Made by a program: the position numbers and the translations under genes
Assembly (NCBI RefSeq): GCF_036507355.1
Contig: NZ_AP027877.1
Strand: one strand, 5' to 3'
Source of the DNA: Escherichia coli
Lineage (GTDB): Bacteria; Pseudomonadota; Gammaproteobacteria; Enterobacterales; Enterobacteriaceae
DNA: 64,000 nt
Part shown: positions 3,437 through 20,806 of the stretch, piece by piece
How the letters are laid out: each line of letters begins with the position of its first letter
How positions within the stretch are numbered: position 1 is the first letter of the stretch
The notes under the pieces: generated by a model
Databases searched by the model: none
What the model saw: the letters and a program-made list of their open reading frames with translations, nothing else
What the model was told of the DNA's origin: nothing

Positions 3437-4564
3437 TCATTTTGTGTCATAACTTTCTATGACCTGAGAAACCACTGCGTGTGATGTCGCTGCATTGTGA
3501 AAAGCGTAGCGACGGGTCGCCGTGAGTGAATGGTGATTTAGCAGATGGGAAGCGATTGCAATATCCCCGGTCGCCTGTAGTACCCGGGTGGCAAAGGTAC
3601 GGCGCAGGTCATGCATCCGCAGGTTATCAATGTTGGCATCCCGACAAATACGGGCAAAGGTTGCACGCGGATATGCCAGAGGGCGGGCATTGTCGGTTAG
3701 TTGTGGAAAAATGTAAGTTTTGCTGAGCATCAGGTCCTGCTGGCACTGGACAACTGCAATGGCTGGAAGTGCAAGTGGGCAGGTGAAAGGGTGTCCGGAC
3801 TTTGTATCAGGCAGTATGAGTTGATGCATATCCGGGTGCCAGTACTCCCATTTCAGGGTACATACCTCACCAATACGCATCCCCGTATAAAGAGCAAGCA
3901 ATATAGAATCAGCTGCCGGTGTTTGCAGCGCTGTTGCTGCGTTAATAAAGCGCGGGATTTCTGTCGCTGACAGTGTGCGATAGCGAATGTTATTTTCTTT
4001 CAGATAGCGGACATGTGACATCGGGGAATGTGTGATCCATCCAGCACGTACTGCCAGAGAGCATATTTTGGACAATATTGCGAGGATACGGTTTACTGTT
4101 GACGGACGTAATTTTTCCCGTAAGCCAGCAGCATATTGTTCTAGTTCTCCTGCCGTGATGTCGCGAAGTTGCCGCTTGCCCCAGAACGGGCGAACGTAGA
4201 GGTTGAGTTTTGACAACTCTGACTGAGGACTCTTTTTATACAACTGCAAATCCGGTAGCCACAGGTCATTGATGGCCTGTTCCACAGTGAATCGACGGGA
4301 CTGAACAGCAAGGCGATTTTTATCGGCAAGCAGGTTCATCACATGCTGACGGGCATCCTCAATGCAGAGATGAGGGAATTCACCCAGTGTTTCATATATA
4401 CGTTGATTTTTGATGGTGGCGCGAAAGGCCAGCGTGATCCGTTTTGGATATACCAGTGCACGCAGGTTTTGGCACTGAATATCACGGTATTCCTGACAAC
4501 CCGTGAGGGGATGTGGAAGTTGGTGAATTGATTTGTTGCTGAAACGCAGATCCAGAATAGGCAT
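3437..4564 (-). CDS. Tyrosine recombinase / phage-type integrase, 375 aa
   Basis: C-terminal catalytic signature: TGMRIGEV (Arg), MHDLRRTFATR (HxxR), LLNHHSLTATRRYAFH (catalytic Tyr). Confidence 0.9.
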   Translation of the reverse strand: MPILDLRFSNKSIHQLPHPLTGCQEYRDIQCQNLRALVYPKRITLAFRATIKNQRIYETLGEFPHLCIEDARQHVMNLLADKNRLAVQSRRFTVEQAINDLWLPDLQLYKKSPQSELSKLNLYVRPFWGKRQLRDITAGELEQYAAGLREKLRPSTVNRILAILSKICSLAVRAGWITHSPMSHVRYLKENNIRYRTLSATEIPRFINAATALQTPAADSILLALYTGMRIGEVCTLKWEYWHPDMHQLILPDTKSGHPFTCPLALPAIAVVQCQQDLMLSKTYIFPQLTDNARPLAYPRATFARICRDANIDNLRMHDLRRTFATRVLQATGDIAIASHLLNHHSLTATRRYAFHNAATSHAVVSQVIESYDTK

Positions 4565-6239: not shown

Positions 6240-7475
6240 TTAAAAGGAAATAAACAGAGCCTTTCGCCGATGAATCAATGTGCTGATTTCCCTCAAATCA
6301 GCCTCAATACTACCAACATCACCAAAGACTTCACCTCTAATCTCACTTCGATTTTTCATGAAATTGGTGCTTAATAAGCTTTCTTTTTTTAATGCCATTA
6401 ATTTTGGTTTTATATCGTTATAGAAATGCTTACGGCTTACCCTGATGCTATGAATCGAGTAGTAAACTGTTTTATACATCAAAAATATAAGTAACTGGCC
6501 GAGAAGATATTCTTTTTCAATGTATTTATATTGAGAGGATTTTTCGCGTTTCGCCAGGTAGAAAACATGAGGTGCGATGATGGTGGGGATAAAATCCAGT
6601 GCTGGAGAGGTTTTGGTTTTTTCTGTTTCTCTTCCGGATTGAAGATGTTGAAGTACAGAGTATACAATGCTTAAAATTATGGCGTTACTTATATTATTAA
6701 TTGCAGTTGGGTAAATATGCAGATTGCTTATCAATTCTGAAAGGCAAAGTAAAACACCAGTGATGTTGGGTTTTCTGCCGGAGATTGTGGTGCTGTTGAA
6801 AATGTGACGATTCTTACGACTTATATTGACAAGTTTATGAGTGCAGAACTCTATATGTTCGACGATTTTATCTTGACTATTTTTAATGTATTTTGAAATG
6901 TTAGTGATCCGGCCATTCAACGTTAGTTCATCAAGCAATATATCATTTTTAATATTGCGAATTTCATCGCAATGTTCACATTGAGAAACTATCTCATGTA
7001 ATACATAACTCGAAGTATTGCGTGACGATGCTGATATGTAATCTAAAATGGAATGCTCGACTTTGATTTTTTGTTTGTATTTTTTAATGCACTGTTTGAT
7101 TGTTTTTTGTAGAGTATTTGAGATGTGTTTTTTATATTCTTTTAGAAAATCTTGCTCTAAAAAGAGTGAGGAGAAGATCAACTGCTGGCGAGATAATTTA
7201 ATCTCAGGCTTGATCAATTTAATCCGAAAAACTCTTCCCTCCAACTCATAGCTGAACATGGAAGATAAGTCATAGTGGGGTGATAAATGTTCGAGTAACG
7301 ACATTCGTGTATTCATTAGCCGCTTGAATTTATGGTCAGCATACATAAGTGTTTTTTTTATTTGCTCATCATAAAGTGGGCCGATAGCGCAGTTGGCAAT
7401 ACTCATTCTATCCGGAGACCTCCAGTCAGCAGGGGAATCACATTGACGGTCATCATTACTATCAAAGGGCATCAA
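6240..7475 (-). CDS. Hypothetical protein, 411 aa, AT-rich, no recognisable domain; has hydrophobic segments
   Basis: Long ORF in the track; divergent from hsdM across a ~300-bp intergenic region. Confidence 0.6.
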   Translation of the reverse strand: MMPFDSNDDRQCDSPADWRSPDRMSIANCAIGPLYDEQIKKTLMYADHKFKRLMNTRMSLLEHLSPHYDLSSMFSYELEGRVFRIKLIKPEIKLSRQQLIFSSLFLEQDFLKEYKKHISNTLQKTIKQCIKKYKQKIKVEHSILDYISASSRNTSSYVLHEIVSQCEHCDEIRNIKNDILLDELTLNGRITNISKYIKNSQDKIVEHIEFCTHKLVNISRKNRHIFNSTTISGRKPNITGVLLCLSELISNLHIYPTAINNISNAIILSIVYSVLQHLQSGRETEKTKTSPALDFIPTIIAPHVFYLAKREKSSQYKYIEKEYLLGQLLIFLMYKTVYYSIHSIRVSRKHFYNDIKPKLMALKKESLLSTNFMKNRSEIRGEVFGDVGSIEADLREISTLIHRRKALFISF

Positions 7476-7778: not shown

Positions 7779-9302
7779 ATGAACGACAAAATCAGTCAGG
7801 ACACGATCAACAAAGCCCTGTGGGCCGCGTGTGATACGTTCCGTGGCACCATCAGTGCTGATACCTATAAAGACTTTATCCTTACCATGCTGTTCCTCAA
7901 GTACATTTCAGATGTCTGGCAGGATCACTACGACGAATATAAAGTGCAATATGGCGATGCGCCGGAACTGATTGAAGCGATGATGGCGAACGAGCGCTTC
8001 GTGTTGCCGAAAAGCGCCAGTTTCTATGCGTTGTACGAGCGACGTCATGAGCCGGGCAACGGTGAGCGTATCGATCAGGCGCTGCATGCGATTGAAGAAG
8101 CCAACGGCACCAAACTGAAAGATGCCGGGAAAAGTGTCTTCCAGGATATTTCGTTTAACACTGACCGTCTGGGCGAAGAAAAACAGAAGAACACCATCCT
8201 GCGTCAGTTGCTGGAAGACTTTGCCGGTGAAGATCTTAACCTGAAGCCAAGCCGTGTCGGTACGCTGGACGTTATCGGTAATGCTTACGAATATCTGATC
8301 AAAAACTTTGCTGCCAGCGGTGGGCAGAAAGCCGGGGAATTCTATACCCCGCCGGAAGTTTCGGACCTGATTGCTGAACTGCTCGATCCGCAACCGGGTG
8401 ATACCATCTGCGATCCGGCCTGTGGTTCGGGTTCATTGTTGATGAAGTGTGGGCGTAAAATTGTCTCCGGGCATGATAGTCGTAACTATGCATTGTTCGG
8501 TCAGGAAGCGATCGGTTCTACGTGGTCGCTGGCGAAAATGAATATGTTCCTGCACGGGGAAGACAACCATAAAATCGAGTGGGGCGATACCATTCGTAAC
8601 CCGAAGCTGCTCGATAAAAATGGCGACCTGATGCTGTTTGATATCGTGACCGCTAACCCACCGTTCAGCCTCGATAAGTGGGGCCATGACGAGGCCGAGA
8701 ACGATAAGTTTGGCCGTTTTCGTCGCGGTGTACCGCCGAAGACTAAAGGAGATTACGCTTTTATCTCGCATATGATCGAAACCCTGAAACCGGGAACTGG
8801 CCGTATGGGCGTAGTTGTGCCACACGGTGTGCTTTTCCGTGGCTCCAGCGAAGGTAAAATTCGCCAGAAACTGATCGACGAAAATTTGCTGGATGCGGTA
8901 ATTGGTCTGCCGGAAAAACTGTTCTACGGTACGGGGATTCCGGCTGCGATTCTGATTTTTAAAAAGCAGAAAGTTGATGACAAGGTGCTGTTTATCGATG
9001 CCAGCCGTGAATTCAAGGCAGGTAAAAACCAGAACCAGCTTAGCGAAGAAAACATTAAGAAAATCGTCAAGACCTACCGTGATGGCGATAACGTCGAGAA
9101 ATACGCCTATCTTGCCAGCCTGAAGGAAATTCAGGACAACGACTATAATCTCAATATCCCGCGCTATGTCGATACCTTTGAAGAAGAGGATGAGATTGAC
9201 CTGCTGGCGGTGCGAGCAGAACGCGAGCAACTGAAGGCGGAATTGGCGAAGCTGGAAACGGAGATGGCTGGATATTTGAAGGAGTTGGGTTATGGCTCGT
9301 GA
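7779..9302 (+). CDS. hsdM: Type I restriction-modification system, DNA methyltransferase subunit M
   Basis: 507 aa; N6-adenine MTase motifs including DIVTANPPF and the AdoMet-binding region DPACGSGSLL. Confidence 0.95.
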   Translation: MNDKISQDTINKALWAACDTFRGTISADTYKDFILTMLFLKYISDVWQDHYDEYKVQYGDAPELIEAMMANERFVLPKSASFYALYERRHEPGNGERIDQALHAIEEANGTKLKDAGKSVFQDISFNTDRLGEEKQKNTILRQLLEDFAGEDLNLKPSRVGTLDVIGNAYEYLIKNFAASGGQKAGEFYTPPEVSDLIAELLDPQPGDTICDPACGSGSLLMKCGRKIVSGHDSRNYALFGQEAIGSTWSLAKMNMFLHGEDNHKIEWGDTIRNPKLLDKNGDLMLFDIVTANPPFSLDKWGHDEAENDKFGRFRRGVPPKTKGDYAFISHMIETLKPGTGRMGVVVPHGVLFRGSSEGKIRQKLIDENLLDAVIGLPEKLFYGTGIPAAILIFKKQKVDDKVLFIDASREFKAGKNQNQLSEENIKKIVKTYRDGDNVEKYAYLASLKEIQDNDYNLNIPRYVDTFEEEDEIDLLAVRAEREQLKAELAKLETEMAGYLKELGYGS

Positions 9303-10566
9303 TTCGCTTTACCCAGTGAGCGTTAAAGCTGGAAAACCGATCCTTGGAATGCTACCTACAGGATGGCAAAAGTTATCATTAGAAAAGTGCTTAAATATAG
9401 AGGCAAGAAAGGCATATATACAAGATAATCAAGAGTATGACTTAGTTACAGTAAAGCGCTCCAGAGGTGGCGTAATAAGACGTGAGCATCTTAAAGGAAA
9501 AGATATCTCCGTAAAAAGTCAATTCTATATTAAAGAAGGCGACTTTCTCATATCAAAACGACAAATTGTGCACGGTGCTTGCGGTCTTGTACCTAAAGAA
9601 CTTTCTGGCTCAATTGTATCGAATGAATATTGTGTGCTTACAGGGAAGTCCGGTTTTTATCTTCCTTATATGGAATTTCTATCGGAGTCTCTATATTTCC
9701 AGCAAACCTGCTTCCACTCTAGCATTGGTGTGCACATAGAGAAAATGATTTTTAAGTTAGATAGTTGGTTTAAGTGGCCATTTAATATCCCCCCACTGTC
9801 TGAACAAAAGAGAATCGTTAAAATCCTGTCAACCTGGGATAAGGCGATTTCGGTGACGGAAAAGCTTCTCACCAACAGTCAGCAGCAGAAAAAAGCCCTG
9901 ATGCAGCAATTGCTTACCGGGAAAAAACGCTTGCTGGATGAGAGGGGGGTGAGGTTTAGTGGGGAGTGGAAGAGAGTAAAACTGGGTGCGATAGCCGATA
10001 TGAACAGTGGAGGTACTCCGAAATCAACGGTTGAAGAGTATTATGGCGGGAATATCCCATGGGTATCTATTTCTGATATGACATCTAATGGAAAGTGGAT
10101 TGCTACAACTGAAAAATATCTGACTGAATTAGGATTGAACAGTTCATCCGCAAGAATATATCCAAAAAACTCGGTTCTTTATGCTATGTATGCTTCTATA
10201 GGTGAATGCAGCATTGCTGCTGTAAATTTAACATCTTCGCAGGCAATCTTGGGTATTAGACCAAAAGATTGTTTAAATTATGAGTTTTTATATTTCTATC
10301 TTACATCATTAAAAGAAAAAATAAAACTGCAAGGCCAGCAAGGTACACAGTCCAACCTAAACGCCGGAATGGTTAAAGAGTTTGAACTAGACTTACCCAG
10401 TATAAGAGAACAACAAAAAATCGCCGCCGTCCTGTCCGTCGCCGATGCCGAAATCTCCACGCTGGAGAAAAAACTCGCCTGCCTGAGAGATGAGAAAAAA
10501 GCCCTGATGCAACAGCTACTGACTGGCAAACGTCGTGTTAAGGTCGATGAGGCGGTTGCCGAATGA
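9292..10566 (+). CDS. hsdS: Type I restriction-modification system, specificity subunit S
   Basis: 424 aa; two AT-rich target-recognition domains separated by the repeated conserved segment KKALMQQLLTGKKRL / KKALMQQLLTGKRRV; start overlaps the hsdM stop by 11 nt. Confidence 0.95.
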   Translation: MARDSLYPVSVKAGKPILGMLPTGWQKLSLEKCLNIEARKAYIQDNQEYDLVTVKRSRGGVIRREHLKGKDISVKSQFYIKEGDFLISKRQIVHGACGLVPKELSGSIVSNEYCVLTGKSGFYLPYMEFLSESLYFQQTCFHSSIGVHIEKMIFKLDSWFKWPFNIPPLSEQKRIVKILSTWDKAISVTEKLLTNSQQQKKALMQQLLTGKKRLLDERGVRFSGEWKRVKLGAIADMNSGGTPKSTVEEYYGGNIPWVSISDMTSNGKWIATTEKYLTELGLNSSSARIYPKNSVLYAMYASIGECSIAAVNLTSSQAILGIRPKDCLNYEFLYFYLTSLKEKIKLQGQQGTQSNLNAGMVKEFELDLPSIREQQKIAAVLSVADAEISTLEKKLACLRDEKKALMQQLLTGKRRVKVDEAVAE

Positions 10567-11246
10567 AACTGACGAAAAGCGGTCCACTGACTGACCGGGA
10601 AATCGACTGGCTGGAAGAAATATTAATGAAGTATGGAATGGATGATTCTGTACTCTGTTTCTCTGAGCTGGATGGATTGCTGACGGCGATTTTATCAGGT
10701 CCAAATATGGTTTCACCCAATATCTGGCTGAGTGCTATTTGGGGAGGAGGCGATTATCATCCGAAATGGTCATCTGAGAGAGAGATGGAGCGTTTTGTCA
10801 GTCTGTGTTTTCAGCATATGAACGATATCGCTGGTTGCCTTTATGACGCCCCTGAACTGTTTGAGCCGATTTTCAATGAGCGTGAGGTAAAGGGGGAAAA
10901 ATATACCATTGTGGAAGAGTGGTGTTTTGGTTATATGAAAGGAAAGTCACTGGATGACTGGTCTGGTCTTCCCGGTGAGTTACGGCCTTCTCTGGAAGTG
11001 ATCGCTCTTCATGGCGTGGAGAAGAATTTTCCTGTACTTGAGAAAATGACCAGAGAGCAGTTTGAGAAAAGTATTTCCCTTATTAAGCCTGCTGCACTGG
11101 CACTTTATCAGTACTGGTTGTCAGTGAGAATGTCAGAGGCATCATCCCGGCCTGTTCCAGTGAAGGGGGCAGAAAACATGCCCGGGCGAAATGACCCGTG
11201 TCCGTGTGGCAGCGGTAAAAAATTTAAGAAGTGCTGTCTGCATTGA
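10563..11246 (+). CDS. YecA/UPF0149-family protein with C-terminal SEC-C metal-binding motif, embedded between hsdS and hsdR
   Basis: 227 aa; C-terminal [20 protein letters not shown]; colinear with chromosomal YecA (20141-20806) along its whole length; ATGA overlap with the hsdS stop. Confidence 0.85.
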   Translation: MKLTKSGPLTDREIDWLEEILMKYGMDDSVLCFSELDGLLTAILSGPNMVSPNIWLSAIWGGGDYHPKWSSEREMERFVSLCFQHMNDIAGCLYDAPELFEPIFNEREVKGEKYTIVEEWCFGYMKGKSLDDWSGLPGELRPSLEVIALHGVEKNFPVLEKMTREQFEKSISLIKPAALALYQYWLSVRMSEASSRPVPVKGAENMPGRNDPCPCGSGKKFKKCCLH

Positions 11247-11295
11247 TGAATCTTCATGTGACCAGTAGCGAGTAGCGCCAGAAAGAAAAGGATTA

Positions 11296-14200
11296 ATGAT
11301 GAACCAGACGTACACGCCTAAATTCCAGGAAGAATACAGCGCCAAAATTCCGGCACTGACGTTACTGACCAGCCTCGGCTGGACGTTTTTATCTCCGAAA
11401 CAGATTATGGATTACCGGGGCTATAAACAGGATGAGGTGGTGCTGCGTCCGGTTCTGCGTGAAGAGCTGTCGAAGCGTTCCTTTATGGCGGGTGGCAAAA
11501 CCTGCCAGTTATCGGAAAAAGCACTGGATAACCTGATATCACAGGTCTGTTCTCCGGCGCTGAATGAAGGGCTGCTCAAAGCCAATGAACGGATGTATAA
11601 CCATCTGCTCTACGGTATCGCCGTCACGGAGTTTGTCGATGGCAAGAAGGTGAACCCCACCATTGCGCTGATCGACTGGGAACATCCGGAAAGTAACCAG
11701 TTCCATTTTACCGAAGAATTTACGGTATTGCGGTCAGGCGGTGTCGAAACCCGCAGGCCGGATATTGTGTGTTTTGTGAATGGTATCCCGCTGGCCGTCA
11801 TTGAAGCGAAAAGCCCGGCGGGTCACGGCAAGAAAGGGCCAACCATTGACGAAGGGATATCCCAGAGTATCCGCAATCAGCTCAACGACGAAATCCCGCA
11901 GCTGTTTGCTTACAGCCAGATATTACTGTCGATTAACGGGCATGACGGGCGCTACGGTACCTGTCATACACCAATGAAATTCTGGGCGGCATGGCGCGAA
12001 GAAGATATTACTTACGCGCAGATGTATGCGCTGCGCAACCATAAGTTATCGACTGAACAAATTCATGCGTTGTTTGATGATCGTCCTTCAGTCGATCTCA
12101 AATGGTATCAACAGTTAATCGATGGGGGGGAACTGGCAGTCAGCGGGCAGGATAAGCTGCTCATCAGTCTGCTTTCACCGGAACGTCTGCTGGAGATGAC
12201 CCGCTTCTTCACCCTGTTTGATAAAAAAACCGGAAAAATTGTTGCCCGCTATCAGCAGGTGTTCGGTATTAAAAGACTGCTGGAACGCATCAGTACCCGC
12301 AGACCAGACGGGGGCAGGGAAGGTGGGGTGATCTGGCATACCACGGGGTCAGGTAAATCTTACACCATGGTATTCCTCAGCAAGGCGCTGATTCTTCATG
12401 ACAGCCTGAAGCAGTGTCGTATTGTGGTGGTGACGGACCGCGTGGACCTTGAAGGGCAGCTCAGCGGCACTTTTGTCTCTGGTGGCGAACTGGCAGGGAA
12501 GGATGATAAGGCCAAAGCGATGGCAACCTCAGGTCAGAAGCTGGCACAGCAGATTGGCTCTGGTAAAGAACGTATAATCTTTACCCTTATCCAGAAATTT
12601 AACTCAGCGACAAAATTGCCTGAATGCGTCAACACCAGCCCCGACATCATCGTTCTGATTGATGAAGGACACCGTAGCCAGGGTGGTGAGAACCATGTGC
12701 GAATGAAACTGGCACTGCCGAACGCCGCCTTTGTGGCATTTACTGGTACGCCATTGCTAAAAGAAGATAAGACCACCAATAAATTCGGGCCGATTGTCCA
12801 CGCTTATACCATGCAGCGAGCGGTAGAAGATAAAGCCGTTACACCTTTGCTGTATGAAGAACGTATTCCCGACCTTGAGGTTAACGATCGGGCAATAGAT
12901 GCCTGGTTTGATCGTATTACCGATGGGTTAAGCGAAGCGCAAAAAGCCGACCTTAAGCGTAAATATGCCCGTAAAGGTGAGGTTTATAGTGCAGATGATC
13001 GCATCCGTCTGATCGCACTCGATATCGCCACGCACTTCTCGAAGAATATTGATGAGGGGCTGAAAGGCCAGCTTGCCTGCGACAGCAAGATTTCCGCCAT
13101 CAAATATAAAAAGTATCTTGATGAAGCCGGGTTGTTTGAGTCAGCAGTAGTTATCAGCCCGCCGGATACCCGGGAAGGGAATACCGAAGTGGATGAAAGC
13201 AAACTGCCGGAAGTGACGAAATGGTGGAAGGATAATGTCGGCACGCAGGATGAGTCTGTGTATACCCGTAATATCATCAGTCGTTTCGATACCGATGAGA
13301 AGCTCAAATTGCTGATAGTCGTTGATAAACTGCTCACCGGGTTTGATGAGCCGAAGAATACCGTGCTGTATATCGACAAGCCGCTTAAGTCCCACAACCT
13401 TATCCAGGCGATTGCGCGGGTGAACCGACTGCATCCACTAAAAAAGTTCGGTCTGCTGATTGATTATCGCGGTATTCTGGCTGAGCTGGACACGACTATC
13501 GGCAAATATCAGGACCTCGCCTCCCGAACTCAGGGCGGATACGATATCAAAGATATTGACGGGCTGTACAGCGCCATGAGCTCTGAATACAAGCGCCTGC
13601 CGCATCTGTATAACCAGCTGTGGGCCATATTTGCCGGTGTTAAAAACAAAAATGATACTGAGCAGTTACGTGCGGTACTGGTGCCTAAAATGGAAGAACG
13701 TGACGGAGAGATGGTCGATATCCATCAGAAAACCCGTGATGATTTCTTCGAGGCGTTAACGGCCTTTGCCGGATGCCTGAAAGTGGCACTGCAGTCCGCT
13801 ACCTTCTTCACCGACAAGAGCTTTACGGAACAAGACCGAAATCTCTATAAAGAAACCGTAAAACAGATGTCCAGCCTGCGCCAGTGGGCGATGCAGGTAA
13901 GTGGAGAGCAGGTCAATTATGACGACTACGCTGAGCAGGTGAAAAAACTGCTGGATAAGCATGTCACCGGCGTTGAGGTTCGTGAACCGGATGGCGTGTA
14001 TGAAGTCGGTAAAATGGGCAAGAGCGAAAAGCCCGAAGAGTGGGACAACAATAAAACCCGCAATGAAACCGACATCATTAAAACCCGCGTGACGAAGATG
14101 ATTGAGCAGGAATTGCGTGATGACCCGTATGCTCAGGAGGCATTTTCAAAACTCCTGCGTATGGCTATCGAAGAGGCTGAAAAACTGTTTGACCATCCGC

Positions 14201-14583
14201 TGAAACAGTACCTTTTGTTCCGTGAATTTGAAGAACAGGTTGAAGCCCGTAAGCTCAGCGATATCCCGGATGCACTGGCGGTAAACAAGCATGCTCAGGC
14301 GTATTACGGTGTATTTAAAAAAGAGCTACCTGAGGTTTTTGCGGTAAACGACGTTCAGGTGCAGGATAAGTGGACCAAGCTGGCTTTTGAAGTGGACAAC
14401 ATTATCGTCAAAGCGGTGGCAGAAAACTCCCTGAACCCCCAGGACATTGAGAAAGTCGTTAAGACAAGTCTGCTACCACTGCTGTTTACGGCCTGCCGGG
14501 AAATTGGTGCCGGAATGAATCAGGTTAACCGTATTGTGGAAACCATCATCCAGATACTGCGCGTTGGTTTGATGAAATCATGA
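11296..14583 (+). CDS. hsdR: Type I restriction enzyme, restriction (helicase-nuclease) subunit R
   Basis: 1095 aa; Walker A TGSGKSYTM and DEAH-box LIDEGHRSQ; typical HsdR N-terminus. Confidence 0.95.
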   Translation: MMNQTYTPKFQEEYSAKIPALTLLTSLGWTFLSPKQIMDYRGYKQDEVVLRPVLREELSKRSFMAGGKTCQLSEKALDNLISQVCSPALNEGLLKANERMYNHLLYGIAVTEFVDGKKVNPTIALIDWEHPESNQFHFTEEFTVLRSGGVETRRPDIVCFVNGIPLAVIEAKSPAGHGKKGPTIDEGISQSIRNQLNDEIPQLFAYSQILLSINGHDGRYGTCHTPMKFWAAWREEDITYAQMYALRNHKLSTEQIHALFDDRPSVDLKWYQQLIDGGELAVSGQDKLLISLLSPERLLEMTRFFTLFDKKTGKIVARYQQVFGIKRLLERISTRRPDGGREGGVIWHTTGSGKSYTMVFLSKALILHDSLKQCRIVVVTDRVDLEGQLSGTFVSGGELAGKDDKAKAMATSGQKLAQQIGSGKERIIFTLIQKFNSATKLPECVNTSPDIIVLIDEGHRSQGGENHVRMKLALPNAAFVAFTGTPLLKEDKTTNKFGPIVHAYTMQRAVEDKAVTPLLYEERIPDLEVNDRAIDAWFDRITDGLSEAQKADLKRKYARKGEVYSADDRIRLIALDIATHFSKNIDEGLKGQLACDSKISAIKYKKYLDEAGLFESAVVISPPDTREGNTEVDESKLPEVTKWWKDNVGTQDESVYTRNIISRFDTDEKLKLLIVVDKLLTGFDEPKNTVLYIDKPLKSHNLIQAIARVNRLHPLKKFGLLIDYRGILAELDTTIGKYQDLASRTQGGYDIKDIDGLYSAMSSEYKRLPHLYNQLWAIFAGVKNKNDTEQLRAVLVPKMEERDGEMVDIHQKTRDDFFEALTAFAGCLKVALQSATFFTDKSFTEQDRNLYKETVKQMSSLRQWAMQVSGEQVNYDDYAEQVKKLLDKHVTGVEVREPDGVYEVGKMGKSEKPEEWDNNKTRNETDIIKTRVTKMIEQELRDDPYAQEAFSKLLRMAIEEAEKLFDHPLKQYLLFREFEEQVEARKLSDIPDALAVNKHAQAYYGVFKKELPEVFAVNDVQVQDKWTKLAFEVDNIIVKAVAENSLNPQDIEKVVKTSLLPLLFTACREIGAGMNQVNRIVETIIQILRVGLMKS

Positions 14584-15335
14584 GTGAAAAAGAATCGCCA
14601 TCAATGAAAGCGTTACGCATTGTCTATGGTGATGATGTCATCACCGTACAGTGTGTTCCGCGTCAGGTCGTAAAGGGCAGGGTGCTCATCAAGGTTTATC
14701 CGGACTGCCGGGTTGTGGCCTCTGTACCGCCTGAAACACCGGAGCACGAGGTATTGTCTGCGCTGAAAAAAAGAGGGCGCTGGATATACCAGCAACTGCG
14801 TGATTTCAGGGAGCAACAGACACACATTGTTCCGCGTCAGTATGTCAGCGGAGAAAGCCATTATTATCTCGGTAAGCAATATCAGTTGAAAGTGACAGAA
14901 GACGCTACTGTGCCGCAACGAGTGAAAATGTTGCGTGGGCGTCTGGAAGTGACTGTCAGACACAAATCGGCAGAAAAGATTAAAGCCTTGCTGGCTGAAT
15001 GGTATCGGGAACGTGCCAGAGATGTTTTTCAGCGCAGGCTTGATTTACTGATTCCGCAGACCCTTTGGGTCAGTGAGCGTCCTCCGATACGTCTGCGGGC
15101 GATGCAAACGCAATGGGGCAACTGTTCAGCAAAAGGCTGTCTGACCCTGAATCCATGGCTGGTTAAGGCATCCTCAGAATGTATCGATTATGTTTTGCTA
15201 CATGAGTTATGCCATGTGGCTGAGCACAACCACAGCGAGGAGTTTTACCGTCTGATGGGGCAGGTTATGCCTGGGTGGGAAAAGGTCAAGAAACGACTGG
15301 ATGGGATGGCTGGGATGTTGTTGGCTGATATGTAA
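14580..15335 (+). CDS. DUF45 / YgjP-like (M48-type) zinc metallopeptidase, translationally coupled to hsdR
   Basis: 251 aa; HEXXH motif HELCHVAEHNH near the C-terminus; ATGA overlap with the hsdR stop. Confidence 0.8.
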   Translation: MSEKESPSMKALRIVYGDDVITVQCVPRQVVKGRVLIKVYPDCRVVASVPPETPEHEVLSALKKRGRWIYQQLRDFREQQTHIVPRQYVSGESHYYLGKQYQLKVTEDATVPQRVKMLRGRLEVTVRHKSAEKIKALLAEWYRERARDVFQRRLDLLIPQTLWVSERPPIRLRAMQTQWGNCSAKGCLTLNPWLVKASSECIDYVLLHELCHVAEHNHSEEFYRLMGQVMPGWEKVKKRLDGMAGMLLADM

Positions 15336-15393
15336 CTTATCAATATGAGTTCTTAAGGGTTTGGTCAGTCTCGTTAATGTAGGGAGTATAATA

Positions 15394-17232
15394 ATGAGTA
15401 AGTTAGATAATAAAATTGAAGCACGCCATCGTAATTTGTTTGATGTTCTAAATGCGCAAAAATATACCGTTGATTACTTTCAGCGCGAGTATAGCTGGGG
15501 TGAGAAACATATTGAAGAGTTGGTTACAGACTTAACATCTGCGTTTCTCAATGAATACACCGTCGGTGATTCTCGGGAGCAGGGTGAAAACTACAATAAT
15601 TATTACTTAGGACCATTTGTTGTGAGTAGTAAAGATGGGAAACGGAGTATTATTGATGGTCAGCAACGACTGACTTCATTAACTTTATTTCTAATTTACC
15701 TCCATAACCTTCAGAAAGAACTTAAATATGAAGAGAAAATAGAATCAATGATTTTCTCCGAGTTACGTGGCAGCAAATCATTCAATATAGTAGTTGAAGA
15801 CAGAATACCTTGCATGGAAGCATTGTTTAATTTTGGTAGCTATAGTTTAGTTGATGGGGATGATGAGTCAACCCATAACATGGTGGAGAGATATCAGAAT
15901 ATCACAGATGCTTTTCCTGATGAATTAAAAGGTCAGGCTTTTCCTTTTTTTATCGACTGGCTTAAGTATAACGTTATTATGGTTGAGATAGTTGCCTATT
16001 CAGATGAAAACGCATATACCATCTTTGAGACTATGAATGACCGAGGATTAAATCTTACTCCGTCCGAAATGCTTAAAGGTTTTTTACTTTCACGCTTTCA
16101 TCAGGGAGATAAACGCCAAAAGGTAAATGAACTCTGGAAAAAAGCGATGATGGATTTAAAAAACTATGATAAAGATGAAGACCAACGTTTTTTCCAGTCA
16201 TGGTTGCGTGCTCAATATGCTGATACAATACGCCCGGGTAAAGCTGGTTCAAAAAATGAAGACTTTGAAAAAATAGGTACGCGTTTTCATAGCTGGGTTA
16301 GAGATAATCTTCAGGCGGTGGGATTGGACCCAGATAATGGTGAGACATTCGAACGATTTATACAAAAAAACTTTTTGTTTTATTTGAATGCCTATACACA
16401 AATACTGAATGCTGAGAGAGCATTAACGCACCAACTGGAATATGTATTTTATATCCACCATTGGGGTATTGCACCTACTTTAAGTTTCCCTTTGATGTTG
16501 GCTCCATTAAATGTAGGTGACAGTCCTGATGCTGTGATAGCCAAAATAAACCTGGTGGCGCGCTATATTGAAACATTTGTTGTTCGTCGTTCTGTTAATT
16601 TCCGAAAATTCTCTGCCAGTTCTATTCGTTACACAATGTACAGTCTTGTTAAAGAAATTCGTGGTAAAAGTATTGAAGAATTAAAAGATTTGTTATCTAA
16701 GAAGTTATCCGAAATGCCAGATACTTTTGCAGGAATGGAAGAGTTTCGTCTCCATGGTCAAAACTATCGTTTTGTGAAGTTTTTGCTTTCTCGTATAACT
16801 GCGTGGGTTGAGCAGCAAGCCGGAATGAGTACAACCTTCATTACATATTATCAGCCAGAACACGGTAAGCCATTTGAAGTCGAGCATATTTGGGCCGATA
16901 AATATGAACGTTACTCTGATGAGTTTGAACAAGAGCACGAATTTAACAATTACAGAAATCGCTTAGGTGATTTGGTTTTATTACCTAGAGGCTCAAACCA
17001 GTCATATGGTGATTTGTGTTACGATCAAAAGCAACCTCATTACATCAAAGAGAATCTCCTGGCTAAATCGTTATGCCCATTGGCATATATGAATAACCCT
17101 AATTTCAATCAGTTGAGAAATGTATTCGGATTGCCTTTCAAACCACATGATTCATTTAAAAAACAAGATGTCGATGAACGACAGTCTTTGTATAAAATAA
17201 TTTGTGAGAATATTTGGGACCATAATTTATAG
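15394..17232 (+). CDS. DUF262 (ParB-like, DGQQR) / DUF1524 (His-Me finger) protein, GmrSD-like type IV restriction candidate
   Basis: Motif IIDGQQRLTSL in the N-terminal half; C-terminal EVEHIWADKY...NRLGDLVLLPRGSNQS. I place the start at ATG 15394 with SD agggag 7 nt upstream; the track uses TTG at 15361. Confidence 0.75.
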   Translation: MSKLDNKIEARHRNLFDVLNAQKYTVDYFQREYSWGEKHIEELVTDLTSAFLNEYTVGDSREQGENYNNYYLGPFVVSSKDGKRSIIDGQQRLTSLTLFLIYLHNLQKELKYEEKIESMIFSELRGSKSFNIVVEDRIPCMEALFNFGSYSLVDGDDESTHNMVERYQNITDAFPDELKGQAFPFFIDWLKYNVIMVEIVAYSDENAYTIFETMNDRGLNLTPSEMLKGFLLSRFHQGDKRQKVNELWKKAMMDLKNYDKDEDQRFFQSWLRAQYADTIRPGKAGSKNEDFEKIGTRFHSWVRDNLQAVGLDPDNGETFERFIQKNFLFYLNAYTQILNAERALTHQLEYVFYIHHWGIAPTLSFPLMLAPLNVGDSPDAVIAKINLVARYIETFVVRRSVNFRKFSASSIRYTMYSLVKEIRGKSIEELKDLLSKKLSEMPDTFAGMEEFRLHGQNYRFVKFLLSRITAWVEQQAGMSTTFITYYQPEHGKPFEVEHIWADKYERYSDEFEQEHEFNNYRNRLGDLVLLPRGSNQSYGDLCYDQKQPHYIKENLLAKSLCPLAYMNNPNFNQLRNVFGLPFKPHDSFKKQDVDERQSLYKIICENIWDHNL

Positions 17233-17290
17233 CAAAGTTAGGGTGTTAATTAATCTGTAATGGCATCATGATTTTTAAAAGGAGGTTGAA

Positions 17291-18418
17291 TTGCGTTCTG
17301 AAACGTTTTTTGTCAAATTTATTGAACAACTGAAAGGTATTTCGGTTGAGGATGATGTTGAATTCAATTTTTTTGAATTGGGTGGTTCCGGATATCTCGA
17401 AAATCCAACTACGGATTTGATGGCTTTGTTTATGGGAGCCCAGAAAATGGTGCCGCCATGGTTGCTCAAAGCATTGCTATGTTGCCTGGATGATTCCCTC
17501 GATGTTGATGAAATTGATTTCACTTCTCTGGAGCTAATGAGAGAGGCCCGAACAGAAGATGGGAAATATATTGATATTCTTATCAGACATGATGAATTCA
17601 TTATAGGTATTGAGCATAAAGTTCTGGCTGATACATATAATCCTTTTCCCAGCTATGTAAGTCTCATTGATAGTTACGGCGGCAACAATCAAAAACTATT
17701 TCGCTGTATATTAAAGCCTGACGGTAACAGCGCTAAAGGCGTAGACGGTTGGCAACTGATCAATTATTCACTGCTGCTGGAAACCGCCATTCGACGTCTG
17801 GGGTTGGAGATGATGAATCAAGAGTTCAGCAAGTGGACTGTTTTTTATCAGGAGTTTTTAAGTCATCTTAAAAAATTGAGTGAGGTTAGTATGGATAAGG
17901 TATCTGATAAAAATGTGGAGTTTGTCACTGAAAATTTCTCAGCTTTGATAAAATCGGTTCAACTGCTGGAAATGTACCAAAATGCTATCACCGAGGAAGC
18001 TAAATCGGTTGTCTCAGAGGTATTGCCTGATATTCATATTGCAACAGGTATTAATAACTGGAAGGGTTACTATAAAGCAATTCATCTGATGCCGGGATGC
18101 TGGGGGCAAGGTAAAACAGGAATTACGTTAGTTTATCGCCCTTCAGAGGATGGACGAGATGAAGCTGAGTTCTACGTATATGGATGGATACATTCAGATG
18201 ATTACCCTGAAGTTAATGCACTAAAAGAAGAAATAAGAGTTGCTTTAAGTGCTGGAGATTTCATTCCAACAGCTAGCCCTGAGGACTATGAAGTATCAAT
18301 TACTGGGAAGGGGAAAGTGCTTGAACTGAGTTTTTGGGGGAATACGAGAAGCAAAAAAGATGCACTGGTTCTTCTTAAGGATATGACTAAGTGGATGGAC
18401 TCAAAAATAAGAACATAA
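17291..18418 (+). CDS. Hypothetical protein, 375 aa, with PD-(D/E)XK-like motif
   Basis: TTG start preceded by strong SD aaaaggagg; YIDILIRHDEFIIGIEHKV resembles a D...E-x-K nuclease core; remainder has no recognisable domain. Confidence 0.5.
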   Translation: MRSETFFVKFIEQLKGISVEDDVEFNFFELGGSGYLENPTTDLMALFMGAQKMVPPWLLKALLCCLDDSLDVDEIDFTSLELMREARTEDGKYIDILIRHDEFIIGIEHKVLADTYNPFPSYVSLIDSYGGNNQKLFRCILKPDGNSAKGVDGWQLINYSLLLETAIRRLGLEMMNQEFSKWTVFYQEFLSHLKKLSEVSMDKVSDKNVEFVTENFSALIKSVQLLEMYQNAITEEAKSVVSEVLPDIHIATGINNWKGYYKAIHLMPGCWGQGKTGITLVYRPSEDGRDEAEFYVYGWIHSDDYPEVNALKEEIRVALSAGDFIPTASPEDYEVSITGKGKVLELSFWGNTRSKKDALVLLKDMTKWMDSKIRT

Positions 18419-18522
18419 AGTAATATGACTGAGTGATGACGATCTTTTTTAAATTGTGGATTATTAGGCTGGTAATTGAAGCGCCGAATAGACAGATATT
18501 GGAATAAAAGGAGAATATTCAA

Positions 18523-19704
18523 ATGATTTATCAGTGTGATACTTGCAGTAGAACGACTTTTGAGGTTAATTGTCCCTGGTGTAGTGGAGTTTCGCCTGTA
18601 AAAACGTCTGCATGGGGTTCAGCATCATCGACCGCACAAGCAATAGGCATACAACGTATGACACCATTGAATCCATCGTTTTATCCCGAATTTCAGTATC
18701 GTTCAAAGGGTGTTCTAAAAGATCTATTTGGGAAAAAGAAAGAGCAAACTCAGCTTAATCAATTGCTTGAAAATGTTCTCAAAAAATACTCCAGTTTAAA
18801 AGATCCATATTTTACTAACTTCATTTACACTTCCAGATTCTCACATAATAATAAATCGGAAGCAGATTACTCAACAGATAATGGTACATACTCCGAATTA
18901 CAACTTTTCCGTGAGGTGTTGGTCAGAAAAGGGTTCAATGAGCTTGAGCAGTTACCTGAGCTATTAGATAAATTACTCCTTACCACGTCATTTAACGCTC
19001 TTTATTATGGTTTCGCTAAGGAAGTTAAACGGCATATTAAATCCACACTTACTGAATCCTTGAAGTCATGGATTGAGGAAGCGGGTACCACTTTTAGGGC
19101 AGATCTTTCATTGTTTCTATTCTATATATGGAGCAATAAAATAGAGTTCTCATCAGTAGAGTTCAATGAAAAAGCGGAGGCTACGCCTGGTGTTCCTTTA
19201 GTTTCATTTGATGAAGTTAAAAAATACTTAGCTGTGTGCGAACATATTTATTTTGATATTCTGGTTGATAGATTAGCTACACGGCTCGAACATTTTAACC
19301 CTAACAAATTCGTCACCATGTATTTAGTTGATGCAATGGACGGTTTCCAGTTTGAAGATTTCCTTGTGGAAGTATTCCAGACTATGGGCTATGACGTCAA
19401 AGAAACCAAGAGAACGCAAGATCAGGGGGCAGATCTCTTCGTCACTCGATTTGGTAAGGATATGGTTATTCAGGCGAAAAATTATTCTGGTTCTGTAGGT
19501 AACTCGGCGGTGCAGCAGGTGATCTCTGCTAAAACATTCTATGGTTGTGATGAGGCGATGGTTGTGACTAATTCCTACTTCACACGCTCTGCCAAAGAAT
19601 TAGCTGAATCAGCCTTGGTACGTTTGATCGACAGGGATGAACTGCAAAAGTATCTGGATGATTACAATCAGAAGATAATTGAAGATTTCCAGTCAAACTC
19701 GTAA
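18523..19704 (+). CDS. Restriction endonuclease-like protein: N-terminal Cys4 zinc-ribbon plus C-terminal Mrr catalytic domain
   Basis: N-terminus CDTCSRTTFEVNCPWC; C-terminus GADLFVT...VIQAKNYSGSV...VVTNSYFTRSAKELA...LIDRDEL, colinear with the E. coli Mrr catalytic region as I recall it (D...Q-x-K). Confidence 0.75.
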   Translation: MIYQCDTCSRTTFEVNCPWCSGVSPVKTSAWGSASSTAQAIGIQRMTPLNPSFYPEFQYRSKGVLKDLFGKKKEQTQLNQLLENVLKKYSSLKDPYFTNFIYTSRFSHNNKSEADYSTDNGTYSELQLFREVLVRKGFNELEQLPELLDKLLLTTSFNALYYGFAKEVKRHIKSTLTESLKSWIEEAGTTFRADLSLFLFYIWSNKIEFSSVEFNEKAEATPGVPLVSFDEVKKYLAVCEHIYFDILVDRLATRLEHFNPNKFVTMYLVDAMDGFQFEDFLVEVFQTMGYDVKETKRTQDQGADLFVTRFGKDMVIQAKNYSGSVGNSAVQQVISAKTFYGCDEAMVVTNSYFTRSAKELAESALVRLIDRDELQKYLDDYNQKIIEDFQSNS

Positions 19705-20140: not shown

Positions 20141-20806
20141 ATGAAAACGGGACCGTTAAACGAAAGTGAGTTGGAATGGCTGGACGATATTCTGACCAAA
20201 TACAACACTGACCACGCCATCCTTGATGTGGCGGAGCTGGACGGTTTATTGACGGCGGTGTTGAGTTCTCCGCAAGAGATTGAACCGGCACAGTGGCTGG
20301 TTGCCGTGTGGGGTGGGGCTGACTATGTGCCGCGCTGGGCGTCAGAGAAAGAGATGACGCGCTTTATGAACCTGGCTTTTCAACATATGGCCGATACCGC
20401 AGAGCGTCTGAACGAATTCCCGGAGCAGTTTGAGCCGTTATTCGGCTTGCGAGAAGTTGATGGCAGCGAGCTGACGATTGTTGAGGAGTGGTGCTTTGGC
20501 TATATGCGGGGCGTGGCACTTTCTGACTGGTCAACATTGCCCGATTCGTTAAAACCAGCGCTGGAGGCGATAGCGCTGCACGGTACTGAGGAAAACTTCG
20601 AGCGGGTAGAGAAGATGTCGCCAGAAGCGTTTGAAGAGAGCGTAGATGCCATTCGACTGGCGGCGCTTGATCTACATGCGTACTGGATGGCGCATCCGCA
20701 GGAAAAAGCTGTTCAGCAACCGATCATAGCAGAAGAGAAACCGGGGCGTAACGATCCTTGCCCGTGCGGTAGTGGTAAGAAATTTAAGCAGTGCTGCCTG
20801 CATTAA
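20141..20806 (+). CDS. yecA: UPF0149-family protein YecA with SEC-C motif (chromosomal copy)
   Basis: 221 aa; ends [20 protein letters not shown]; position between tRNA-Leu and tyrP as in K-12. Confidence 0.9.

Follow-up and report, generated by a model that had tools for sequence, protein, structure and literature searches.

Textbooks describe Type I restriction-modification (R-M) systems as enzymes of three subunits. The window analysed here (a stretch of 64,000 nucleotides of Escherichia coli) contains a Type I operon in which a gene for a putative zinc metalloprotease directly follows hsdR, which raises the question what such an enzyme does at the end of a restriction operon. We provide strong evidence that the gene encodes a soluble, strongly basic zinc metalloprotease that is predicted to be catalytically competent, and that in one large Type I clade, which spans many phyla, it is an obligate partner of HsdR to which it is translationally coupled. 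It is thereby probably the fourth component of a major Type I restriction family. The genomic pattern speaks for a core role directed at HsdR rather than for an optional toxin, and of the two roles raised in a preliminary description of the locus, restriction alleviation and a toxin-like backup, the latter is the less likely. The substrate, the DNA dependence and the HsdR binding discussed below are what we infer.

The operon follows an order that is strongly supported for the entire protease-linked clade: hsdM-hsdS-(variable cargo)-hsdR-protease (Table 1). The cargo slot is occupied by a YecA-family gene, the product of which is 57% identical to the chromosomal YecA; this gene belongs to the operon, though not to its conserved core. 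HsdR scores 1539 bits on the HMM of the clade (against 66 for the HsdR of EcoKI) and its C-terminal 365 aa show no Pfam match. In E. coli the hsdR-protease pair is constant, whereas slot cargo and downstream genes vary. Judged by gene order, the same plan is found in the RRDM island of EPEC E2348/69 (RptR-HsdM-HsdS-DarT-DarG-HsdR-M48), where the M48 gene is also the last one, right after hsdR (PMC12255303). There, DarTG2 takes the slot that is held by the YecA-family protein in the window, and a gene for the repressor RptR precedes hsdM, whereas neither an RptR gene nor TAGCTA repeats were found upstream of hsdM in the window.

Table 1. Features of the Type I operon and of the hsdR-linked protease gene (positions in the window).
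Feature	Position	Strand	Basis
hsdM, Type I methyltransferase subunit	7779..9302	+	N6_Mtase E 4e-107, HsdM_N; TIGR00497 E 4e-84
hsdS, specificity subunit	9292..10566	+	Methylase_S, two stretches, E 3e-41
YecA-family (UPF0149 + SEC-C) cargo gene in the hsdS-hsdR slot	10563..11246	+	PF03695, PF02810; PADLOC PDC-S12 E 2e-99
hsdR, restriction/translocase subunit, protease-linked clade	11296..14583	+	TIGR00348 E 8e-138; HSDR_N, SWI2_SNF2, T1R_D3
ATGA junction, protease start codon over hsdR stop codon	14580..14583	+	read from sequence
YgjP-like (DUF45) zinc metallohydrolase	14580..15335	+	PF01863 E 3e-58; AF2 pLDDT 95.3; dN/dS 0.054
N-terminal alpha/beta domain (residues ~10-128), basic, without confident structural homologue	14607..14963	+	
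Long helix and minigluzincin-like catalytic domain (predicted; residues ~131-248)	14970..15323	+	
Zinc site HELCH-x5-H (H208, E209, H212, H218)	15201..15233	+	homologue alignment

The protease gene encodes 251 aa, with the same start in the RefSeq annotation. Its product belongs to the YgjP-like family PF01863 (DUF45, COG1451), as was proposed from the sequence: the Pfam match is well above the gathering score (E 3.1e-58, 197.6 bits against a cutoff of 26) and covers the full profile (positions 3-205 of 207). The zinc site HELCHVAEHNH is intact, also as proposed. Its four residues (H208-E209-x-x-H212 and H218) are invariant among 72 diverse homologues, and HExxHx5H is preserved in 147 of 148 homologous open reading frames, the lone exception being cut at a contig end. 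H218 aligns with the third zinc-ligand histidine of proabylysin. The same proposal also spoke of an M48-type enzyme, and this part does not hold, since the Pfam scan yields no match to Peptidase_M48 (PF01435) and the third ligand is a histidine instead of the glutamate of MEROPS M48 sensu stricto (Ste24/HtpX/Oma1/BepA); 'M48 family metallopeptidase' is an NCBI product name only. The reading frame is no product of chance, given that in comparison with a diverged E. coli allele it is under purifying selection (dN/dS 0.054 at a dS of 0.95), with a constraint comparable to that of hsdR (0.059) and hsdM (0.032). Unlike M48 proteins sensu stricto, which are located in the membrane or periplasm, the translation shows neither a hydrophobic stretch nor a signal peptide when read by eye. 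In PADLOC-DB v2 no family matches the protease at E <= 0.01; its neighbours match the models PDC-S12, HEC-06/Orf5, PDC-S26 and others.

The AF2 model suggests a minigluzincin/SprT-like fold, with minigluzincins as first structural matches, followed by Spartan and Wss1, and with CapP and IrrE among the weak ones. The predicted catalytic domain superposes closely on the minigluzincin scaffold (a zincin fold of ~100 residues with HExxH and a further histidine). The minigluzincins themselves (proabylysin 4jiu, projannalysin 4jix, selecase 4qhf) are stand-alone archaeal proteins of ~100 aa, whereas the present protease adds a basic N-terminal domain of ~130 aa and is operonic with hsdR, hence it is not a minimal stand-alone minigluzincin. 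Minigluzincin zymogens are auto-inhibited by C-terminal segments. The protease may also resemble the DNA-protein-crosslink proteases SprT, Spartan and Wss1 in working mode, though this is a likeness and no proof of membership: the WLM (PF08325) and SprT-like (PF10263) Pfam scores are slightly under their cutoffs, and the Zn-binding subdomain, SHP, UBZ and SIM motif are absent. A viral structure library returned weak SprT-like matches to the catalytic domain, and no full-length equivalent was found in it. With a median pI of 9.75 and a median net charge of +15 (81 homologues), the family is strongly basic, which hints indirectly at DNA binding. One lineage carries the protease as a fusion with a segment whose M78 and HTH matches are sub-threshold. 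The namesake of PF01863, E. coli K-12 YgjP (b3085), has the C-terminal HExxH region in common with the protease (PF01863 positions 146-200), but it counts only 167 aa, is 25% identical over ~60 residues, is without the N-terminal domain and has no R-M gene adjacent; it is no functional model for the HsdR-linked protease.

The junction reads ...GAAATCATGAGTG..., in which the ATG of the protease (14580-14582) and the TGA of hsdR (14581-14583) share a 4-nt ATGA overlap. The preliminary description was right about this overlap, but went too far in deriving stoichiometric co-expression from it: an ATGA overlap implies translational coupling, i.e. co-expression that depends on translation of hsdR, and not a 1:1 ratio. 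As a strong Shine-Dalgarno sequence is absent ahead of the ATG, re-initiation more likely yields an amount of protease equal to or below that of HsdR. Similar arrangements are widespread: among 138 homologous hsdR-protease junctions, 113 overlap (75 have a gap of exactly -4 or -1) and 119 lie within 30 nt. In the same operons the hsdS-hsdR gap amounts to at least 150 nt in 74 out of 116 cases and to at least 1 kb in 56, due to inserted cargo that often spans kilobases. Insertions are thus tolerated at all positions in the operon except for the hsdR-protease junction. Between two E. coli alleles the dS of the protease gene (0.95) is much larger than that of hsdR (0.18); tight allele-specific co-adaptation is therefore not apparent, a point that counts against the alleviation reading set out below.

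The connection with HsdR was quantified in two directions. The protease-anchored census covered the 80 best out of 594 loci from GTDB genomes. Two of the 80 were untestable; hsdR is directly upstream on the same strand in 71 of the other 78, with 7 exceptions. The 80 loci span Proteobacteria, Bacteroidota, Chloroflexota, Planctomycetota, Verrucomicrobiota, Cyanobacteria and Actinomycetota. In the HsdR-anchored census (80 loci from IMG/VR, with counts limited to HsdRs with downstream DNA) the protease follows all 67 in-clade HsdRs, each scoring at least 491 bits, against none of the 7 HsdRs at 431-454 bits, which all belong to one sister clade in the NJ tree. The link between this peptidase family and Type I R-M that the preliminary description mentions is therefore real both ways, yet it does not extend to the whole family: it is confined to the full-length (~240 aa) subfamily and one HsdR clade, K-12 YgjP not being R-M linked. 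The operon in the window belongs to this group by its overlapping, hsdR-adjacent protease start as well as by its HsdR. The protease-linked clade occurs in 560 of 5426 complete E. coli genomes (~10%) and in at least seven phyla. EcoKI HsdR falls far outside (66 against at least 491 bits) and has no protease adjacent, while EcoR124I HsdR is distantly related (E 4e-32).

Within the clade the C-terminal ~365 aa of HsdR diverge from the canonical T1RH-like_C domain (PF11867), with E-values of 6e-10 to 6e-4 and no match at all for the HsdR in the window. Three of five protease-less HsdRs that were scanned match this domain at 1e-96 to 1e-126, whereas the other two show a weak match or none. The divergent C-terminus correlates with protease linkage, but was rejected as discriminator given these two protease-less cases that also lack a strong PF11867 match.

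A link between COG1451 and Type I systems was reportedly noted by Makarova et al. in their 2011 work on defence islands. It is already known from the EPEC RRDM paper that M48 is conserved alongside Type I genes (neighbourhood analysis by Zhang et al., NAR 2025; PMC12255303). The link with one HsdR clade, as quantified here, is far tighter than an annotation remark. Two reviews of Type I enzymes (Loenen et al. 2014; EcoSal Plus 2025) leave the peptidase unmentioned, and our literature searches found no functional study of the HsdR-linked form.

The reading that is best supported, though we hold it as a serious possibility rather than a probability, is that the protease, as an obligate partner coupled to HsdR, exerts control over HsdR complexes and so provides built-in restriction alleviation. 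The protease would be made solely with, and next to, newly made HsdR, because its translation begins where that of hsdR ends. It probably binds HsdR and may act in cis on complexes that contain it. By analogy with the DNA-dependent Spartan and Wss1, it might be turned on once the complex has engaged DNA or has stalled there, and would then destroy the HsdR subunit in complexes that turn against unmodified sites of the host or have reached a dead end after cleavage. The operon itself would in this way supply the alleviation that ClpXP supplies for EcoKI-type systems and Lon/AsrA for P. aeruginosa. A more specific version is possible but rather doubtful, namely a four-component machine in which a DNA-activated, HsdR-tethered zincin dismantles HsdR motors that are stalled or attack the host chromosome, as would befit a bacterial counterpart of the eukaryotic crosslink proteases Spartan and Wss1.

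Precedents for built-in alleviation are found in general host proteases. In ClpXP-dependent alleviation of Types IA and IB the substrate of proteolysis is the translocating HsdR, whereas Type IC is insensitive to ClpXP and alleviation is still seen (PMC3874165). Loss of HsdR (PA2732) in PAO1 requires a translocation-competent HsdR and Lon/AsrA (bioRxiv 10.1101/2024.10.21.619520). ClpXP acting on EcoKI/EcoAI HsdR and Lon/AsrA acting on PAO1 HsdR are functional analogues of the proposed mechanism, in that translocation-competent HsdR is selectively destroyed and self-restriction is thereby prevented; both are AAA+ proteases encoded elsewhere, whereas the present protease is predicted to be ATP-independent and is encoded in the operon. 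The same precedents also weigh against built-in alleviation, as host proteases already suffice in these two systems, and the Lon/AsrA dependence would count if the PAO1 system carries the protease. For a family member from Pseudomonas, neither the 120 closest homologues nor the clusters to which these belong included a P. aeruginosa protein, and a published PAO1 primer sequence had no match in viral contigs; four metagenome matches to this primer were discarded as chance hits (low GC, no hsd genes). The Type I system on V. cholerae VPI-2, cloned as five genes and active, was considered as a test of dispensability, but is uninformative, with Zorya adjoining hsdR and the protease absent. A further caution comes from ArdC of R388, a plasmid-encoded anti-restriction ssDNA-binding protein with a SprT-like metalloprotease domain and an architecture unlike that of the present protease. 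Although ArdC is linked with Type I restriction, it functions without its protease site and a substrate was not found (PMC7213743), so that fold plus context are a weak predictor of what the protease does.

Among the alternatives, counter-counter-defence fares best, but we consider it unlikely. Here the protease would degrade anti-restriction proteins that bind the Type I enzyme (the DNA mimics Ocr and ArdA, or ArdB/KlcA-type proteins). The gene does sit in a defence operon, DNA-mimic inhibitors mainly target Type I enzymes (PMC12429846), and tethering to HsdR would put the protease where inhibitors bind. With its net charge (+11 to +15) the protease would be suited to bind DNA and highly acidic DNA mimics alike, which takes away part of the argument for built-in alleviation. 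DNA mimics bind the HsdM/HsdS core and not HsdR, however, which leaves the coupling to hsdR unexplained, and the presence in all members of the clade, in many phyla, points to a function that belongs to the enzyme itself and not to a reaction against particular inhibitors.

The backup role raised in the preliminary description has a familiar logic in PrrC, which accompanies EcoprrI, and in the metalloprotease Lit, which cleaves EF-Tu. A protease held inactive by HsdR could be freed upon phage attack on the R-M complex and then cleave an essential host protein, causing abortive infection. Its coupling to HsdR would fit, as would the tendency of Type I operons of the clade to host second-line effectors such as DarTG2 (PMC12255303; cargo is present in 74 of 116 loci). 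Known backups, on the other hand, are optional and occupy the variable hsdS-hsdR slot; the protease lies outside this slot, and its presence in 67 out of 67 clade members is what one expects from a core subunit. Since we also have no PADLOC model, cognate immunity gene or toxicity report for the protease, this role seems improbable.

We give a similarly small chance to a maturation or assembly factor, which would process HsdR (e.g. by removal of an inhibitory segment) or chaperone its assembly onto HsdM2S and would be required for any restriction. Strict co-occurrence with one HsdR clade that has a divergent C-terminal ~365 aa is consistent with such a role, and a coupling that is located at the C-terminal end of HsdR would fit assembly during translation. 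Nonetheless, minigluzincins and SprT-type enzymes are degradative endopeptidases, and the HsdR C-terminus is weakly conserved.

Very improbable is a signal-responsive regulator that cleaves a repressor such as RptR and thereby induces the island upon infection or DNA damage, comparable to CapP/CapH, IrrE/DdrO and ImmA/ImmR. Removal of RptR by proteolysis or sequestration was proposed by its authors, and the last gene of the EPEC island encodes the protease (PMC12255303); the weak structural matches to CapP and IrrE and the single-lineage fusion mentioned above point the same way. Against this, the window has neither the RptR gene nor its repeats, RptR is reported for Gammaproteobacteria whereas the protease-hsdR pair occurs in many phyla, and the protease is coupled to hsdR rather than to a regulator. 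That the protein is no protease at all but a small-molecule or nucleotide hydrolase, as might be argued from the UniRef name of K-12 YgjP ('UTP pyrophosphatase') and from the fact that we found no reports of peptidase activity for PF01863 members, is just as improbable.

Overall, if the protease controls HsdR, this would explain how Type I families other than IA and IB escape self-restriction and come through horizontal transfer, and one point mutation would offer a simple genetic handle on restriction alleviation. If it targets phage inhibitors or host proteins instead, it would constitute a new layer of defence. Either way, a clone of hsdMSR from this clade that lacks the fourth gene may represent an incomplete system. 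Should the four-component machine prove true, these operons would carry a self-contained, host-independent alleviation switch, which would explain how they become established in new hosts across phyla.

Linkage between the protease gene and Type I restriction-modification (R-M) was assessed in both directions. Starting from the protease, we searched GTDB, represented by a single genome for each species, with an alignment of 72 sequences, which gave 594 confirmed loci; neighbours were typed with iterated HMMs derived from the window's Hsd proteins. The best 80 of these loci cover Proteobacteria, Bacteroidota, Chloroflexota, Planctomycetota, Verrucomicrobiota, Cyanobacteria, Actinomycetota and candidate phyla, and an HsdR ORF lies directly upstream on the same strand in 71 of them. 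Two of the other nine have no upstream sequence and seven have unrelated neighbours. Since these seven homologues (L046, L050 from Commensalibacter, L049, L065, L067, L070 and L080; 31-41% identity) reside away from hsdR, next to genes for housekeeping functions, two-component systems or other peptidases, R-M-independent members exist in the family as well.

Starting from HsdR, a 30-sequence alignment returned 80 loci from IMG/VR contigs (98-28% identity). The protease is found directly 3' in 67/67 cases where HsdR scores at least 491 bits on the profile of the protease-linked clade and downstream DNA is present, against 0/7 for HsdRs of 431-454 bits with at least 4.9 kb of downstream DNA; six loci end at a contig edge. 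EcoKI HsdR, which has no protease neighbour, reaches 66 bits. In a neighbour-joining tree, which leaves the deep branching order unsettled, the HsdRs without the protease group together in one clade. Given this split and the tree, the association is clade-specific and, in this sample, complete within the clade. The peptidase-Type I link that the preliminary description mentioned is thus borne out from both sides. The C-terminal ~365 aa of the window's HsdR (residues ~730-1095, window 13480-14580) have no Pfam match; T1RH-like_C (PF11867) matches weakly in related protease-linked HsdRs, against 1e-96 to 1e-126 in three protease-less relatives. This divergent domain may be the docking site of the protease.

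At the junction (...ATC ATG AGT...) the hsdR TGA falls within ATGA, so the overlap that had been described is real and spans 4 nt; the RefSeq boundaries of both genes agree with our ORF reading. We measured the distance from hsdR stop to protease start at 138 junctions, taking the longest ORF as start: it is exactly -4 or -1 nt in 75, negative (overlapping) in 113, within 30 nt in either direction in 119 and above 100 nt in only 5. The hsdS-hsdR interval of the same operons is at least 150 nt in 74/116 loci and at least 1 kb in 56/116, with a maximum of ~6 kb. Insertions pile up in the hsdS-hsdR interval, while the boundary of hsdR and the protease gene is almost always free of them. Of all our observations, this contrast speaks most strongly for the coupling as such being important, and for constraint on the junction. 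The overlap makes protease co-expression dependent on hsdR translation. The stoichiometric co-expression first proposed does not follow from it: a 1:1 ratio is not established, and the protease ATG has no strong Shine-Dalgarno sequence upstream.

The protease matches PF01863 (YgjP-like, formerly DUF45) over nearly the whole profile (E 3.1e-58; 197.6 bits, cutoff 26), in agreement with the family first assigned; WLM and SprT-like profiles score slightly under their cutoffs. The 'M48-type' naming had to be dropped: there is no Peptidase_M48 profile match and the third ligand is His, not Glu, and the RefSeq label 'M48 family metallopeptidase' is loose. The zinc motif HELCHVAEHNH (window 15201-15233) is intact as claimed, with H208, E209, H212 and H218 invariant across the 72 homologues (identity down to ~32%) and H218 aligned to the third zinc-ligand His of the solved minigluzincin proabylysin; the catalytic motif is complete in 147/148 ORFs. 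Overall, the original observation is confirmed and its description largely correct. An AlphaFold2 model based on the 72-sequence alignment is confident (pLDDT 95.3), and two E. coli alleles compared with each other give a dN/dS of 0.054. Basicity is uniform across the family (median pI 9.75; median net charge +15), and it is the N-terminal part that carries the charge. No viral proteins with the full protease architecture were found, and no PADLOC model matches the protease. K-12 YgjP, the namesake of PF01863, differs clearly: it has 167 aa and no N-terminal domain, aligns over only ~60 residues (25% identity), is encoded among unrelated neighbours and is named UTP pyrophosphatase in UniRef. 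In one IMG/VR lineage (L120 9018-11573; also L123 and L124) the protease continues into a ~600-aa C-terminal extension, giving a protein of 851 aa; the extension has sub-threshold Peptidase_M78 (IrrE-like) and HTH_3 matches and no PDB sequence match.

Operon and island features in the window
Feature	Position	Strand	Remarks
integrase	3437-4564		near island
two hypothetical-protein ORFs, 376 + 411 aa	4707-5837 and 6240-7475	(-)	between integrase and hsdM
hsdM	7779-9302	(+)	first operon gene
hsdS	9292-10566	(+)	second operon gene
YecA-family gene (UPF0149 + SEC-C zinc motif)	10563-11246	(+)	between hsdS and hsdR
hsdR	11296-14583	(+)	TIGR00348 E 8e-138; HSDR_N nuclease, SWI2/SNF2 motor, T1R_D3
protease ORF, 251 codons	14580-15335	(+)	Pfam PF01863; last operon gene
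GmrSD, PDDEXK_4 and Mrr-like nuclease genes	15394-19704		3' of protease
chromosomal yecA	20141-20806		island edge; beyond nuclease trio, tyrP also there

The window is E. coli chromosome, and its HsdR is full-length, with nuclease and motor domains. The junction region (window 14000-15400) is 100% identical to strain HKUOPY1, and the hsdR-protease junction occurs in 560/5426 complete E. coli genomes; in other strains this pair is constant, while the gene(s) between hsdS and hsdR and all downstream genes vary. The nuclease trio (GmrSD, DUF262/DUF1524, PADLOC HEC-06/Orf5; PDDEXK_4, PDC-S26; Mrr_cat with a ~260-aa N-terminal extension) has a GC content of 37-41% against 48-50% for hsdR and protease, and is therefore probably a separately acquired module. 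At L120 a GmrSD gene likewise lies immediately 3' of the protease. Both hypothetical-protein ORFs (RefSeq label) are AT-rich (~35% GC) and without PADLOC match. Despite the integrase, ARAGORN found no tRNA genes across window 1-64000; neither the left end of the island nor its attachment site can fall inside the window.

In this clade the space between hsdS and hsdR serves as a cargo slot (window 10566-11296; loci L002-L162), holding DarTG2 in EPEC (PMC12255303), the YecA-family gene in the window and other genes elsewhere. That gene's product is 57% identical to chromosomal YecA and matches PADLOC phage-defence candidate PDC-S12 (E 2e-99); its dN/dS (0.20) is above that of the hsd genes. YecA-like genes occupy the same slot in Alcanivorax, Aliidiomarina, Pseudomonas, Aliivibrio, Desulfuromusa, a Bacteroidota MAG and other E. 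coli, accompanied in strain 2014EL-1343-2 (L164) by a cold-shock-domain protein. Between window 11296-15335 and E. coli PSS-16 (L163 5720-9756), dS is 0.18 for hsdR and 0.95 for the protease (hsdM, 0.66); the jump indicates a recombination breakpoint near their junction and a mosaic operon ancestry.

The protease is thus a conserved basic zincin with an intact catalytic site; its gene occurs only alongside a single HsdR clade (7/80 exceptions), to whose hsdR it is translationally coupled. It would bind HsdR and act on HsdR-containing complexes, and we favour, tentatively and at somewhat less than even odds, a built-in restriction-alleviation or turnover module that conditionally destroys DNA-engaged HsdR. 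HsdR is a proven alleviation target in other systems; the coupling partner is hsdR rather than hsdM or hsdS; the protease behaves like a core subunit, not optional cargo; and, apart from minimal proteins, the structures closest to it belong to DNA-dependent proteases clearing DNA-trapped proteins. Proteolytic alleviation by ClpXP is established for Types IA and IB, and ClpXP-insensitive Type IC nonetheless shows alleviation (PMC3874165). In P. aeruginosa PAO1, translocation-competent HsdR is removed by Lon and AsrA after hypomethylation (bioRxiv 10.1101/2024.10.21.619520); if PA2731 is this protease, that dependence could overturn the alleviation reading. Caution on inferring function from fold and context comes from ArdC, a SprT-like metalloprotease counteracting HsdRMS, whose active site is dispensable and for which no substrate was found (PMC7213743). 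Degradation of anti-restriction proteins seems unlikely, and slightly less probable still are maturation or assembly of HsdR and an abortive-infection effector, given that known backups of the latter kind are optional and located in the variable slot. Cleavage of a repressor is very improbable, as a regulator is neither conserved with the hsdR-protease pair nor present here, and we give equally little credence to a hydrolase other than a protease.

The protease gene and its neighbourhood were annotated previously, and the association was noticed earlier in passing; Makarova et al. reportedly noted in 2011 that COG1451 adjoins Type I R-M. Two comprehensive Type I reviews (Loenen et al. 2014; EcoSal Plus 2025) mention no peptidase or metalloprotease. 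Of the papers we found, the RptR study alone names the gene in its context; it describes the EPEC RptR-RMS-DarTG-M48 island and shows M48 as one of the conserved neighbours of RptR (PMC12255303). In the literature searched we found no description of the strictness, clade specificity or junction constraint of the association. Judged from sequence, the system would be a Type I R-M with an obligate fourth gene, encoding a predicted protease.
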